DNA of 63,975 bases from an uncultured Candidatus Rokubacteria bacterium (GTDB lineage: Bacteria; Methylomirabilota; Methylomirabilia; Rokubacteriales; CSP1-6): assembly GCA_963789955.1 (NCBI GenBank), contig CAWBMV010000010.1:1-63975 (forward strand), written 5' to 3'. Below, piece by piece: positions 27,701-33,700 of this stretch; within the stretch, counting starts at the first letter, position 1; the number at the start of each line of letters is the position of its first letter. The position numbers were made by a program.

Positions 27701-30700
27701 AGTCGCTGATCAGCTTCCGGGCGTTGTCCAGGCGCGCCTTGTCATCCGGCCCCCGCGGCACCTGAATGTCCGGGGAGTGTCGCTGCCCTTCGGTGCCTGG
27801 GCTCGAGGCGCCTGGATGTCCTGGGTCCGCGGCGCTTGAATGTCCTGCGCGCGCGGGGCCTGAGTGTCCTGCGCTCTGGGCGCTTGCACGTCCTGGGCTC
27901 GAGGCGCCTGGACGTCCTGGGCTCGCGGCGCTTGAATGTCCTGCGCGCGCGGGGGCTGAGTGTCCTGCGCTCTGGGCGCTTGCACGTCCTGAGCTCGGGG
28001 CGCCTGAATGTCCTGCGCCTTCGCGCCGGCAAGCTGACGCGACGCCTGCGTCGTCGCACCGGTCTTCGAGGACGCAGCAGTCGCCTTGCTGAGCATCGTC
28101 TTCGCTTGCGAGAGCTCCGCCGGGCACTTGTCGGCGGCCGACGCCAGCGGCGGCACGCTCAGGAGTGCTGCGATGATCGCGATCTTGCACTAGTCTCGCG
28201 CATGTCCTTCATCCTTTCCGTTCCGTCCGCTTCGAGAGCCAATGTCCTTGGTCGATGGCTCGATCCGGGCAATTGCGAGTGCAACGACGCTGCCACGTGC
28301 GTCGCCGCAAGGTGATTCACGGTTTTGTCCTTACGTCATGCGCACCAAGCGCGCAGCCGCCGGGCGTCCGACAAGCGCCCGGTGCGGCCACCGGGTGAGG
28401 CGAGAGCGGGACAACAGGGGCGGCGATGCCCCGGAGAAATCGTGATGGAGGGTCGGGATTGTCACGACATGTTCCGCGAACGTCGCGCCGCGGCTCGCCA
28501 GGTCAGCGTCAGTCGACCTGGCACCGACCTCGCATTCAAGATCGCCGGGAGGGAACGTATGTCGAATCGTTACTCGGTCGTCTGCATGACCTGCCGCTAT
28601 CAGAGCTCTCACTCGTCGCGGTGGGAGGCGAACATCGATGTCGCGGCTCATCTCCGCGACAATCCGACGCACTCAGCGACGGTCGTCGAGGAGGGCCAGG
28701 GCGCCACGAGGCGGAAGGCTAGTTAATCGTCCAGCTGGTCCTCGGAGCGCCCGCACCGATCGCAGCAGGTCGTCGGCTGAACTCGGCCGTCTCCGCGTCT
28801 CCATCGACACCGCCGGCGGCGTGCATCAGACCGCCACACCGGCAGGGCTCCGGGTATTCGTCCAGGCACTCGGGACGCTGCAGGTCGCCGATGTGGTGGT
28901 TGGGCTCATCACCGACCGTGAATAGCGTCATCGCTTCCGCTCTCCTCGTTCGCGGCAGCTGTCGGCGGCATCGTACCGCACTCATGACCAGCGCCGCCGA
29001 TCGGGATCAGGCCAAGTGAGAGCGGCGGGCCGATACCGCCGCCGCATGGGCGACCGGATTCCCGCGAGGAATGAGACCGGCCCGCCGCGGTAAGCGGCGA
29101 GGTCGAACGGGAAGAGTGGATCGCCGCGAGGGAGTCGGTGATCGCACCGCCGGCTTCCTGCAGAACACACGCACCGCCCGCGAGATCCCAGAGCGCGGCG
29201 CGGTGATCGAGCACCACGTCGATGGCTCCGAGGGCGGCGTAGGCGAGGTGGAGGGCGACCCAGCCGAACGCGCGGAATTTGTATCGCCGGAGCCAGTCGC
29301 TCACGACGGGGATCAGCGACGGATCGAGCGGGACGCGCCGAGACGTTCGAGGCCTCGGTGAGCGGCTGTCCGCGCAGGACCAGCTTGACGGCGCCAAGCC
29401 ATGCCCCCTGATCGCGAACGGCCCAAACCGTGAAGCCCGTGTTCGGATCGTGGACGACGCCGGCATACGGCGTGCCGTGCTGGAAGACGCCGAGCGAGAC
29501 GGCGAAGCACGGCAGGCCCAGCGCGTAGTTGTTCGTGCCGTCGAGCGGATCCACGATCCAGACGAACTCGCGGTCGAGGCCGGCCGCAGCTTCGCCTTCT
29601 TCCGCGAGGATGCCGTCACCCGCGAACCGGATTCGTACCGCGTCGAGAATGCGAGATTGCAGCGTGGTGTCCATCGGGGTCACGCGTTCTCCGGGGCGCT
29701 TCCAGGAAAATTCCACGCGATCCGCCGAGGTCATGGCATGACGCCCGGCCTCGCGCGCGAGCGTCAACGCCAGCGCGACTCGCGGATCGTTCGGCTGTGT
29801 CTTCGGGCGCACGGCGTGCGGCATCGTGGTCAGCAGACCGGGTACTCGCCGCGTGCGAGCTGCGCCCGGAACTCCGTCAGTCGTCCGAGCTCGCCCTCCA
29901 CGACGTCTCGCACGCTCGTCGCGATGTCCGACAGGATCATGTCCTTGGGCAAGACCATCTGGATGCCCGTCCACGGCTGGTCCACGGGCTCGCCGATCCG
30001 CGCCGCCAGGTGCACGTAGACTTGAGGAAGCTCTGGATGCCGGGTGTGGATCAAGCCGGCGAGACGATGGCTCAACACGCTGTAGATTTTGCCGGCGTGC
30101 GCCACGGCATTTTTCCCGGGTGCTGCCTCGCCCCCCGAGGGACGGGAAAAGGCGATCAGGCCGTTGGCGCCGTTTCCGCGCCCAACCTCGCCCGAGTCGG
30201 CATCCTCGGCCGATGTCCCCGTGATCGTCATGTACACTCCGTCGGCACCCGCGCCCGGCCTGTCGAGGTTGTTCAGCCGGAACGACGAGCTGCAGTGGAG
30301 CGTCGCGGAAGCGCTCGTCGAGTGCCGCCAAGATCTCCTGCTTGCGCCGGAAGTAGACGCCCTCCGACGCGACGGCGCGGCACAGAGCGGCATCGCGACG
30401 GTCACGTCGAGGCGATCGTCCTCGCGGAGCCCGAAGACCTTCACGTCTTGTCCGGTGTCCGGGAACCGGCGCTTGAACTCCGTCCCGTTCAGGAACTGCT
30501 CCACCGCCAGCACGATCTGCTCCGTGGGGCTCAAAGGGGCGTAGCCGGAAGCCCCGGACGTATCGTTGGAGGCGACCGGACCCGACCGCCGGCCCGAAGA
30601 TTCCGCGGAGCTCGGCGGAGCCCGGCGCCAGCGCGATGCGGGTTTCGAGGTCCCGCCCGGCGCGCACGTGGGGCAGGTGGGCGACGGTCCACGCGTCACC

Positions 30701-33700
30701 GCCGCGCGCACCGTCTTCTCGACGGGTAGTCGCCGCCCGTCGACCTCGAACGTCGCCCGGTCTCCGAGAATGAGCTCCATCGGACGAGTCACCTCGCCCC
30801 GTCCGAAGCCCGTCACGCACTGGCCGGCAACAAGCATTGCCTTGTCGACGTTGTAGTGCTGGACGCTCCCGACCTCGGCCAGGTACATGCGGTTGAGCGC
30901 GACGGCGACCGCCTCGGCCAGGGAGTCGCAGATGGTGTCGGGATGGCCGAGACCCTTTCGCTCGACCAGCTCGATCCGCCGCTGCGCGACCGGCACTTCG
31001 GCGAGAGCCTCGATCACGGTCTTCACTCGATCGGTCTCCGGGGGCCAGCCCTCCTTGCCGATGAGCGGAACGAACGCGACATCCTCGAGCTCCTCACGAC
31101 GGTAGTCGTCGGGACGAGTCCGGGTCAGGCGGACCAACCGCTGGCCGAGCCGCCAGTTGCCGACCGGCATCACGAGGCGCCCGCCGACAGCGAGCTGGGC
31201 CATGAGGGACGAGGGCACCTCGGGGCCGCCGGCCGTGACGATGATCACGTCGTAGGGCGCATGCTCGGGCCAGCCCAGGGTCCCGTTGGCTTCACGCACG
31301 TGGACGTTCCGGTAGCCGAGCTTGGCCAACTGCCGGCGCGCGGACTGCGTCAGACTCGGCAGGCGCTCGATCGTGTAGACCTCGGCGACGATCGTCGCGA
31401 GCACCGCCGCGGAGTATCCCGAGCCGGCACCGATCTCGAGGGCGCGATCGCCGGTCTTCGGCTGGACGGCCTCGATCATCGCCGCGACGATGTACGGCTG
31501 CGAGATCGTCTGGCCCTCACCGATCGGGAGCGGTTCGTCGTCGTAGGCCGATCGCGCCTGGCTGGCGGGGACGAAGGCGTGGCGCGGCACCTTCCGCATC
31601 GCCGCCAAAACCGCCGGGTTCCGCACGCCGCGTCGAGCGATTTGAAGTTCCACCATTCCATGACGTTCGCGAACAAAATCCGTCGATGCTGATACCGTTC
31701 GCATCTTCGCTTCCTCCAGGAGGTGCGCGGCGTGATCGCGCGCACGCCGGCTGATCGCCCTCTGCGCGGCCGAACCCACTTCGACCAGCAGCTCGGATCG
31801 GCCTGAGCTCGCCTGCTGCGGCGGCGTGTTGGGCGAGTGAATGAAGCGGCGCTCGACAAGCGCCACGACGGCCTCCGCCGCCCCCGCGATATCCTGGGCG
31901 GTCGTGTCGATGATCAGCTCGGGAGCCAGCGCGACTTCATACTCGACGTTGACCCCGGGCACGCGGGCACCGGCCTGCGTTGCGCCGGCGTAGATGCCGG
32001 GCGGGGCCGCGCCTCGCGGCCGCGCCGCTTCGCGCTCCCGACATACGGCCAGTGGACACACCAGCTGCACCTCAGCAAAGCTCGACAGCGCCGCCCGCGC
32101 GAGATCGCGCCACGCGCGTCGGTGAGCCGTGGCGTCGAAGATCACGGGAATGCCCGAGTCGACCAGCGTCGCGCCGATATAGACCAGCGCGCGGTACACG
32201 GCCTCGCGCTCGGCGTCACAGTACGTGGGCACGGGCGTGATGACCCGGCGGATCTCGTCGAGCTCGAGCACGACCACGTCTCTCCACGCGAGCAGAGCTC
32301 CTTCGCCGCTGCTCGCGCGATAACGGACTTGCCGCTACCGGGCAAACCGGTGATCCAGATCGCCCAGCTCATCGAGTCGACTGATGCCGAGCGGCCACAT
32401 CGGGCGCCGCAGGGCTCGCGGTGTTGCTCAGGAGCATCCCGTAGCGGACGGTGATCCTCACAATGACAAGCGAACGCAAGGTCGATGCCACCCCACGGAT
32501 TCAATCGGCTCGGCGGTTTAGTTCGAGAGCGCGGCGGACCAATGGGAGATGGCCGCCCACGTGAGGCACCAACGCCGCGCTCCGTCGCGCACGTGCGCTC
32601 CGTCCTGGTCCCTCGCCCATGGTGGCACGCACCGGAAGAGCCTCCGCTCGCCGTGGCATCGACGATGCATTCGTTCACGGGCTGGGGGCGCCGATCGCCC
32701 GCGCGCCTTTTCTCGAGTACAAGGTCGGCGCGCTCCCGATCGTGACGCCCGTCGGTTACATCGACATCCTCCGGGCGGTGCAGGACATGCTCGAGGAGGG
32801 CTGAGACATGGCCGGGCGCGCGCCGCGCATCGACAAGAACCTGGCGTCCTGGCCGAAGCCGGTGCCGGTGAAAGACTGGATGGGGCGACCCGCCGTCACG
32901 ATTCCTGCCGGCGCCACCTGCCGCGAGGCGATCGACTTGATGAAGGCATCCAAGATTCGACACTTGCCCGTCGTCGACCGAGCCGGCTCGTGGGGATCGT
33001 GTCGGATCGGGATCTGCGGCACGTGCTTTTCAATCCGGCGATCCAGGACAGACTCGAGCAGGCAGTCGAGATCCTGGAGAGTCGGACCGTGCGTGAGGTC
33101 ATGACATGGGCGGTCATCTCCGTCGGCCACCGGACGGGGCTGCGACAGGCCGCTGGGTCTTGGTGCCGAGCAGAAGTCGGCACCCTGCCGGTTGTCCACG
33201 CCGGCCGCGTGGTCGGGGTTTTGACGGAGCGCGACGTGCTGCGCGCGTTCGCGGCGCTGACCCCCGAGGGGGTGACGAGAGTGACGCCGCTCGAGGTGGG
33301 CGTGGGCGAAGACGCCTACGAGTACGGCTTTCCGCGAACCGAAGTCCCCGGTCAGTGAGGATACAGCGCGCGCAGGTACGGAATGCCGAGGCCCAGGAGC
33401 GTGACCAGAAAGATCAACCCGAATATCGATCCGAGGCCCCGAGAATTCCTTGCGCGTGATGTACCCGCTCGCGAAGTAGATCGGGGCCGCCCCCGTCGCG
33501 TACGGAGTCAGGACACCCATCAGCCCCAGCCCGTAGCAGAGAAGCAGTGAAGCTTGCTTGATCGGCAGGTCGGGCGTGGCGGCCATCGAGGCCACGAACA
33601 CCGGCAGGAACGCGGTCGTGTGGGCCGTGAGGCTCGCGAACATGTAGTGGCTCACGAAGAACACGACGACGATGACGACCGTCTTCACCACGACCGGCGT

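Follow-up and report, generated by a model that had tools for sequence, protein, structure and literature searches.

An archaeal-type methionine adenosyltransferase (MAT, a SAM synthetase) and a kinase-PCMT protein are encoded by two separate but overlapping genes in the 63,975-nucleotide stretch of an uncultured Candidatus Rokubacteria genome that was analysed here (the window). The reading that we consider probable, with limited confidence, is that these genes form a coupled unit within a stress island, in which an accessory MAT is co-induced to supply SAM for protein repair at low oxygen or in dormancy. When oxygen is low or growth stops, a sigma-54 promoter would switch both genes on, the PCMT would methylate isoaspartate in ageing proteins and spend SAM in doing so, and the co-made MAT would keep SAM available to PCMT and to other SAM users when the housekeeping supply is low. 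The link between the two enzymes would be co-expression in a fixed ratio, and the fusion of MAT to PCMT that occurs in another lineage may represent the final stage of this coupling. Both enzymes are textbook enzymes, and the placement of extra SAM synthetases beside SAM-using genes is already known.

Table 1. Features of the window and the contigs that span the PCMT-MAT junction
Feature	Position	Strand	Basis or remark
Stress island around PCMT-MAT	1624..61385	.	88 of the 164 predicted coding segments were scanned with Pfam
Inositol-monophosphatase-family gene	28980..29824	-	PF00459, 3.6e-27; starts 5 nt after the MAT stop
Archaeal-type MAT, 398 aa, separate gene	29830..31026	-	PF01941, 3e-104
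Single stop-free frame, 815 aa	29830-32277	-	Assembly sequence
GTGA overlap, MAT start codon on PCMT stop codon	31023..31026	-	Window sequence and 14 relatives
Kinase-PCMT gene, about 450 aa	31023..32372	-	96% identical to P0121; PCMT passes TIGR00080 and NF001453
Sigma-54 (-24/-12) promoter-like site	32476..32490	-	One of eight such sites in the window; the kinase-PCMT start follows about 100 nt downstream
Junction contig X1			151 window bases versus 153
Junction contig X2			328 window bases versus 330
Junction contig X3			513 window bases versus 516, one indel at 30696 included
Junction contig X15			1545 window bases versus 1551; the difference includes 3 nt at 31812 and 1 nt at 32278

The junction between PCMT and MAT

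In the assembly sequence, the kinase, PCMT and MAT domains stand in this order in one frame, as the survey's finding had described, with Pfam matches to APS_kinase (residues 3-124), PCMT (208-409, 2e-60) and AdoMet_Synthase (421-811, 3e-103). The Walker A start was confirmed to lie upstream in another frame of the window. It is very improbable that this strain makes a three-domain protein. In favour of such a protein are the open frame itself and the single frame seen in a second genome, G158, but the junction-spanning contigs carry a net two additional nucleotides relative to the window in each of the four runs, which come from four studies, and the PCMT of all 14 unbroken relatives ends at a TGA that overlaps the MAT start (ATGA, GTGA or TTGA in 12, CTGA in one and TGATG in one). 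The same frame also contains four more indels inside MAT, which form the compensated frameshift pairs 30696/30588 and 30385/30285, and single-base gaps near 32278 and 31033-31037 interrupt the kinase-PCMT gene in the assembly. The relative P0121 that the survey had pointed to shares 96% identity over 413 aa and has the C-terminal end GWRPGDLIE. Its suspicion that the fusion is an artefact and that only the adjacency is safe was borne out by the contigs and the relatives; the triple fusion was not confirmed as biology, and by these sequence comparisons the 815-aa frame is an indel artefact.

The same applies to a 683-aa PCMT-MAT chain (P0009) that had been offered as an example of a fusion. This protein is 100% identical to a gene of G158, which has two further frameshifts in MAT and one additional nucleotide at the junction relative to G157 of the same genus, and it is the only one of 120 long PCMT homologues that includes MAT. 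No clean example of the PCMT-MAT order on one chain was found. A 4-nucleotide stop/start overlap in an indel-rich assembly thus makes false fusions, and has done so twice at this junction. The overlap itself is, as predicted from its sequence, a translational coupling of PCMT and MAT.

The archaeal-type MAT and its downstream neighbour

The MAT of the window matches PF01941 with 349 bits, above the gathering score, over model positions 4-395 of 395, and its relative P0001 aligns to it across three frames. The closest solved relatives are the archaeal MATs 4l4q, 6s81 and 7p83. In terms of NCBIfam models, P0001 falls below all five PRK04439-type cut-offs (best 466 versus 557), and the fused proteins P0242, P0403 and P0409 pass NF003366 (480-500 versus a cut-off of 435), but P0256, P0289 and P0331 fail. 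The active sites of the MATs were checked by alignment at 15 positions, eight of which we take to be phosphate, metal and motif residues. The other seven (H30, H59, N61, D141, L142, Y268 and D280) are from the P. furiosus list of PMC8727953, of which D168 was left out of the mapping. P0001 retains all 15 positions, with Glu in place of P. furiosus D141. By PF01941 score and active-site residues the enzyme is of the archaeal type, and SAM formation is predicted.

The protein resembles archaeal MATs (PF01941; PDB 6s81, 4l4q, 7p83 and 4hpv; PMC8727953) in sequence family and SAM-contact residues, and the model of a fused MAT has the fold of 6s81 (TM 0.95). In contrast to these, it belongs to a bacterial host, is accessory to MetK, lies in a stress island and is coupled or, elsewhere, fused to PCMT; the Rokubacteriales clade differs further in its NCBIfam scores and in the Glu residue described above. 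The MAT of M. jannaschii takes several nucleotides (PMC8727953).

The survey's report of a bacterial MetK in addition to the archaeal-type MAT was correct; metK is present on contig C17, and 41 of 42 MAT-bearing relatives retain it. The survey had not found the archaeal-type MAT in the four genus genomes that it searched; of 16 other genomes of the genus, one (G041) has it. MAT converts ATP and methionine to SAM and does not recycle SAH, so the proposed use as a "SAM-regenerating" template is wrongly termed and "SAM-supplying" fits.

Downstream of MAT, the 3′ end of the inositol-monophosphatase-family gene is approximate because of frameshifts. Contigs of X2, X3 and X15 bridge this gene and MAT, and the two are probably on the same transcript here. 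It was rejected as a fixed partner of MAT, as it stands beside MAT in 0 of 30 other loci.

The kinase-PCMT gene

The upstream gene combines an APS-kinase-like P-loop domain with a canonical protein-L-isoaspartate O-methyltransferase. Of nine proteins scanned, all eight with a PCMT domain passed the TIGR00080 and NF001453 cut-offs. The motifs TISQP and EIGTGSGY are present, and the PCMT motifs are nearly invariant in the fused family. By model cut-offs and motifs, the PCMT is assigned to the Pcm/PIMT family. It is similar to the solved members (PDB 3lbf and 2yxe) in fold and in passing both equivalog cut-offs, and differs in being a second copy beside the housekeeping PCMT on contig C30 and in its N-terminal partner, a kinase here and MAT in the other family. 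A PIMT homologue of RiPP maturation was rejected (TIGR04364 at most 142 versus 320; TIGR04188 at most 125 versus 380).

The kinase resembles adenylyl-sulfate kinase (PDB 7yq1) in its fold (TM 0.88, 33% identity) and Walker A motif, but it is fused to PCMT and scores 88 bits against the TIGR00455 cut-off of 138.7, and a true apsK was rejected. The kinase-PCMT fusion is widespread, with a kinase domain on 102 of the 120 long PCMT homologues and Walker A in 88 of these 102. By sequence, the kinase may be an APS-kinase-like island gene that was joined to PCMT in two genera.

The stress island and its promoter-like sites

The island contains many USP and CBS genes along with HSP20, BON, GroEL, LonB, OsmC, acetate kinase, phosphate acetyltransferase, P-type ATPases, pyruvate dehydrogenase, class V FBPase and a sigma-54 activator. 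The clustering of USP, HSP20, acetate kinase, Pta and cation ATPase genes is similar to that of the Burkholderia cenocepacia lxa locus and the Mycobacterium DosR regulon; the features in common, by comparison with PMC3721108, are several USPs, an alpha-crystallin HSP20, acetate kinase, phosphate acetyltransferase, cation ATPase, a sulfate-type transporter and cytochrome c. The word "methyl" is absent from the main text of that paper. According to the same text, lxa has an Fnr/Anr-type motif; in contrast, strict FNR/Anr-type boxes are absent from the window, and from 18 of 18 Rokubacteriales loci, and the window has eight sigma-54-like sites, versus 0.26 expected from 100 shuffles. This corresponds to 12.5 sites per 100 kb, compared to 1.1 genome-wide. 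Loci L146, L147, L148, L150 and L156 also have a same-strand site, no more than about 330 nt from the kinase or PCMT motif. In RNA run X15 the operon is covered by two contigs, which cannot show transcription or its level; it is the gene content that suggests low-oxygen induction of the PCMT-MAT unit.

PCMT as a neighbour of MAT

Of the 43 genomes of the order that bear MAT, at least 22 have PCMT no more than 1.5 kb away from it. Up to 21 of the 43 do not have this adjacency, and in four of them the genes are 20-50 kb apart. The 22 pairs comprise 18 in the order PCMT-then-MAT, two divergent, one MAT-then-PCMT and one convergent; the tandem form is present in eight genera, and the 18 tandem pairs probably stem from one inherited event. 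Among 30 loci, PCMT is the commonest gene within 1.5 kb of MAT (15 of 30), followed by GroEL (7), RtcA (6), YbaK, CBS and USP (5 each) and RtcB (4). Outside the order, PCMT was found within up to 8 kb of MAT at none of 80 GTDB loci, among the matches listed, and at none of four plasmid loci.

The survey's boldest reading was that the repair methyltransferase has a dedicated SAM synthetase, so that SAM is produced at its site of use. Part of this stands. MAT is present in addition to MetK as a second SAM synthetase, no other gene neighbours it as often as PCMT does, and nature has produced a family of MAT-PCMT fusions. Both "dedicated" and the production of SAM at its site of use go beyond the evidence, given the absence of PCMT from the GTDB and plasmid loci, the location of both genes in a shuffled stress island and the fusion of this PCMT clade to a kinase and to aldehyde:ferredoxin oxidoreductase (AOR) as well.

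These observations, together with the other recurring neighbours of MAT, the fusions of PCMT to kinase, AOR, erythromycin esterase and others, and the FNR-type boxes found near unfused proteobacterial MATs as well (e.g., L033 and L046), also agree with a possible, if somewhat unlikely, alternative: MAT would be the stress regulon's general isoenzyme for low oxygen, with no special hand-over of SAM to PCMT, and the adjacency would come from the reshuffling of a few co-regulated genes, one of them an easily fusing PCMT. However, PCMT stands next to MAT twice as often as the next neighbour and does so in four orientations, it was acquired by two MAT lineages, it is the sole partner fused to MAT among the 240 hits listed, and the product of MAT is the substrate of PCMT. 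A co-induced SAM supply for repair is the reading that we retain.

MAT-PCMT fusions in other bacteria

The one-chain MAT-PCMT proteins of about 630 aa that the survey had listed are real and more numerous than its count. Clustering at 90% gives 55 full-length clusters of true fusions, drawn from five sources. They belong to a separate group of uncultured bacteria, are 48-76% identical and have the opposite order to the Rokubacteriales tandem. As judged from these many independent, diverged records, the fusion is a real family. At 21 pattern-selected metagenome loci, 14 genes were fused in one frame and four loci had unfused MAT-then-PCMT pairs; FNR-type boxes at these 21 loci numbered six versus 0.15 expected. 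A GTDB scan with the fusion alignment gave no fused gene among 80 loci, among the matches listed, and hence did not yield a carrier that is named or cultured; the fusion was seen in none of 301 genomes of one alphaproteobacterial order. An ESM Atlas search with P0242 returned PCMT clusters only (0.81-0.82), with no structure, and was uninformative. No description of a MAT-PCMT pair or fusion was found in the literature searched, which did not extend to supplements and subscription journals, and no natural single-chain SAM synthetase and methyltransferase was found there or in the PDB.

The fused MATs are a lineage distinct from that of the Rokubacteriales MATs (AU p=4e-5), and that the fused MATs arose only once is neither established nor rejected (p=0.138); three long-branch degenerate rows were left out of both tests. 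For the two PCMT groups, a single origin was not rejected by AU (p=0.75 in the quick and 0.10 in the careful analysis), and both free trees favoured separate origins. Mean PCMT identity was 47.5% between the two groups, compared to 56.5% between the Rokubacteriales group and PCMT-esterase proteins.

MAT is a dimer in the solved archaeal structures. The fused PCMT might dock on MAT and receive SAM at high local concentration or by channelling, and unfused pairs may do so as a complex, a proposal that we find distinctly unlikely. It agrees with the AlphaFold2 model of the fused P0242 monomer (pLDDT 89.5, pTM 0.87, compared to a pTM of 0.55 for a kinase-PCMT fusion at similar alignment depth), with the narrow length range (624-644 aa in 52 of 55) and with the full-length MAT domain that is kept even where the active site has decayed. 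Against it, the comparison is of one monomer model with one comparator, only one position is conserved specifically in the fused MATs relative to 61 unfused relatives, so that no interface patch stands out, and SAM diffuses freely, so that proximity need not matter.

Somewhat less doubtful, though well short of an even chance, is a broader proposal in which bacteria coupled an archaeal-type MAT to PCMT on two occasions, and the pair in one lineage became a rigid fusion that feeds SAM directly to a docked PCMT. Such a fusion would serve protein repair in low-oxygen dormancy as a self-fuelling machine and would provide MAT-methyltransferase cascades with a natural scaffold; in some branches the MAT half would have become a catalytically dead scaffold or sensor. 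P0242 matches PF01941 with 476 bits, and all 15 active-site positions are kept in 45 of 55 fused MATs and in 60 of 61 unfused ones; four fused proteins have lost most of the catalytic residues. The fusion offers a direct test case for the hand-over of SAM from maker to user and could guide the design of MAT-methyltransferase fusions.

The pairing with PCMT may explain the retention of an archaeal-type MAT by bacteria that already have MetK. A similar arrangement is metKcs of the tylosin cluster (PMC10372049), which is an extra SAM synthetase paralogue next to SAM-consuming genes in addition to the chromosomal metK; it differs in that it is a named metK paralogue, serves antibiotic synthesis and is unfused.

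The PCMT-MAT junction of the window

The survey's finding described one chain joining a kinase, a protein-L-isoaspartate O-methyltransferase (PCMT) and an archaeal-type methionine adenosyltransferase (MAT, PF01941). A single frame of 815 aa is indeed present at 29830-32277 (-), with matches running from APS_kinase through PCMT to AdoMet_Synthase; the Walker-A start does lie upstream of it in a different frame. The claimed triple-domain protein is an artefact, as indicated by frame switches, longer contigs and unbroken relatives with a stop. The kinase-PCMT relative P0121 (450 aa), confirmed as 96% identical to the window over 413 aa, and the MAT relative P0001 (398 aa) align to the window only with frame switches near 32278, 30696, 30588, 30385 and 30285, and contigs of public sequencing runs show one-base differences at these same positions. 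The junction-spanning contig was 2 bases longer than the window in four of four runs, from four studies; for run X15 the inserted bases are given at 31033 and 31037, and the remaining positions were deduced from piece lengths.

All 14 unbroken relatives, from 8 genera, end the PCMT gene with a TGA stop, 17 or 18 codons past FVPL, that overlaps the MAT start (ATGA, GTGA or TTGA in 12, CTGA in one, TGATG in one). In 14/14 of them the motifs are 113 or 125 nt apart; the spacing is 111 nt for the window and 114 nt for the relative genome G158. The survey's 683-aa PCMT-MAT protein (P0009) does not stand as a true fusion either: it is 100% identical to the G158 product, the G158 MAT carries two more frameshifts, and PCMT and MAT are unfused in G157, from the same genus. 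Because of this junction, frameshift and relatives' evidence, the one-frame PCMT-MAT readings of the window and G158 are attributed to assembly errors at the 4-nt overlap, and a genuine triple fusion in the window strain is hardly credible.

Positions of the operon features in the window
Feature	Coordinates	Remark
Sigma-54-type site	32476-32490	upstream of kinase-PCMT gene
APS-kinase-like domain	32145-32372	
Kinase-PCMT gene	31023-32372	
Archaeal-type MAT gene	29830-31026	coupled to kinase-PCMT gene
Inositol-monophosphatase-family (IMPase) gene	28980-29824	window strain

A second sigma-54 site at 32654-32668 (+) points away from the operon, before a small gene and a CBS gene, and the same divergent pair of sites is found in genome G041 (L148). 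A span of less than 6 kb takes in the IMPase-family gene, the APS-kinase-like domain and a sodium:sulfate-symporter-family gene (33410-34728). A sulfur-nucleotide link among the three is possible, though the IMPase gene is not conserved beside MAT.

Distribution of MAT-PCMT adjacency

PF01941 is present in 43 of 183 Rokubacteriales genomes. The housekeeping SAM synthetase MetK is present in the window's genome, as the survey had it (on contig C17; a second PCMT is on C30), and accompanies MAT in 41 of the 42 other genomes, so the archaeal-type MAT is an extra enzyme. The reported PCMT-MAT adjacency is genuine. Of the 30 best loci, 15 have PCMT within 1.5 kb of MAT; the neighbours that come next in frequency are GroEL (7), RtcA (6), YbaK, CBS and USP (5 each), and RtcB and baeRF10 (4 each). 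With several coordinate sets combined, at least 22 of the 43 genomes have such a PCMT, in the orientations PCMT-then-MAT (18, including the window's genome and G158), divergent (2), MAT-then-PCMT (1) and convergent (1). The tandem cases all fall in one MAT subclade and probably represent about one event. Outside the order, PCMT was near MAT in none of 80 GTDB loci among the matches listed (roughly two in three from archaea, with flanks of as much as 8 kb; a weak 31% match in L111 excluded from the count) and in none of four plasmid loci.

MAT-PCMT fusion proteins in other bacteria

One-chain MAT-PCMT proteins, also claimed by the survey, were verified as at least 55 full-length clusters. Four MAT-then-PCMT proteins (P0242, P0256, P0289, P0331) were among the best 150 50%-identity representatives, and P0242 as query gave at least 55 full-length clusters (624-701 aa) and 4 partial ones among the 120 matches listed. 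The fused clusters are 48-76% identical to P0242 and come from JGI, ENA, NCBI, nr and Logan; where a source is named, it is a MAG of Gamma-, Alpha- or Deltaproteobacteria or, in one case, a Rokubacterium. A DNA pattern search returned 21 metagenome loci (in 14 both domains share one frame, in 4 MAT and then PCMT stand as separate genes, and in 3 MAT is alone), counts that are not frequencies because the pattern itself selects this arrangement. The family is rare; it was absent from the 183 Rokubacteriales genomes, the 80 GTDB loci listed and 301 genomes of one alphaproteobacterial order.

All 15 MAT positions of a residue checklist are kept in 45 of 55 fused proteins. Most checked catalytic residues are lost in P0396, P0256 (a cluster of 6 members from several sources), P0289 and P0331, with the MAT domain full length and PCMT intact; judged from these residues, their MAT half is possibly a pseudo-enzyme.

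Neighbours of the fused genes include CBS-BON, malic enzyme, DUF3775, CoA transferase, ferritin-like and cytochrome c genes. In 99,630 bases of the metagenome loci, 6 strict Fnr-type boxes were counted where 0.15 would be expected. Ten loci have 900 nt or more of DNA ahead of the fused gene, and in 4 of the 10 a box stands there; three of these 4 have one and the same gene order. Such boxes were also seen upstream of unfused proteobacterial archaeal-type MAT genes (L033:7851, L046:4998, L039:7344, L053:6895). The boxes at these unfused genes suggest that archaeal-type MAT is widely a low-oxygen isoenzyme in bacteria.

The AlphaFold2 model of P0242 (55-row alignment) had a pLDDT of 89.5 and a pTM of 0.87, with its domains at TM 0.95 to archaeal MATs and 0.91 to E. 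coli Pcm; the comparator, a kinase-PCMT fusion (60 rows), had a pTM of 0.55. No PDB chain among the matches listed covers both MAT and PCMT. This one monomer model and one comparator suggest that MAT-PCMT packing is fixed; a docked module with hand-over of SAM, considered beside such packing, is judged unlikely.

MAT and PCMT are each already known enzymes. Cluster-situated SAM synthetases adjoining SAM users have been published (the parts of PMC10372049 covered), and PMC8727953, on archaeal MAT and nucleotide promiscuity, does not mention pairing with PCMT in the parts covered. No description of a MAT/PCMT pair or fusion was found in the literature searched (supplements and most subscription journals lay outside its scope), and the fusion family is genuine and, it seems, an undescribed variant of enzymes already known.

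Origins of the two arrangements

The MAT tree, built from 86 rows, separates the Rokubacteriales enzymes (support 100) from the fusion-holding clade (96). Forcing the two together was rejected (AU p=3.9e-5, 83 rows), and gene order is opposite in the Rokubacteriales tandem and the fusion family. Given the MAT tree separation, pairing with PCMT has involved two MAT lineages. The PCMT trees (79 rows) also place the fused domains (100/100) apart from the Rokubacteriales island domains (100/99), and their union was not rejected (p=0.75 quick, 0.10 careful); two separate PCMT lineages are likely on these trees. Fused MATs branch in between unfused ones, and one shared origin for the fusion was not rejected.

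The stress island and the proposed role of the pair

With 88 of 164 predicted segments scanned, the window is a stress island with abundant USP and CBS genes, plus HSP20, BON, GroEL, LonB, acetate kinase, Pta and P-type ATPases. In gene content it resembles the low-oxygen lxa locus of Burkholderia cenocepacia and the DosR regulon of Mycobacterium, as described in the parts of PMC3721108 covered. Sigma-54 sites number 8 in the window, compared with 0.26 expected, and no strict Fnr box was found there.

Isoaspartate repair by Pcm consumes SAM. The most likely reading, held with modest confidence, is that low oxygen or growth arrest would switch on the island, that PCMT would mend isoaspartate in long-lived proteins at the expense of SAM, and that the coupled MAT would provide SAM in step with it. 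That the pair simply hitch-hikes in this stress island is a less probable account.

Several features accompany the island. In 70.8 kb of contig C7 of the same genome, sigma-54 sites number 7 (9.9 per 100 kb versus 1.1 genome-wide), and this contig perhaps continues the island. A frameshift-split archaeal-type class V fructose-1,6-bisphosphatase (PF01950) at 26478-27627 (-) is a second archaeal-type isoenzyme of the island, and 27710-28190 (-) encodes a small protein whose start is signal-like and in which an 8-residue unit (QDIQAPRA-like) is repeated about seven times. Beside MAT in loci L002-L031, RtcA, RtcB, archease, YbaK and baeRF10 (RNA-repair/translation-rescue), PolX-PHP and DNA ligase recur. 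The island gathers repair functions for several polymers.

The kinase-PCMT fusion

By sequence comparison, the kinase-PCMT fusion is genuine. Both domains are present in 102 of 120 long homologues (median 449 aa), with Walker A intact in 88 of the 102. Among 251 phylum genomes, full-length forms occur in genera g1 and g8 and the kinase alone in other genera; G054 has a degenerate form. The PCMT scores above the pimt equivalog cut-offs, whereas the kinase has the APS-kinase fold yet falls below the apsK cut-off. The island PCMT clade is also found fused to aldehyde:ferredoxin oxidoreductase, in proteins of about 850 aa that make up 9 of the 120 matches listed (for example P0146, P0151, P0153, P0156, P0158 and P0184) and at the genome loci G080:C395 and G082:C32; the three PCMT domains tested from these fusions form one clade.
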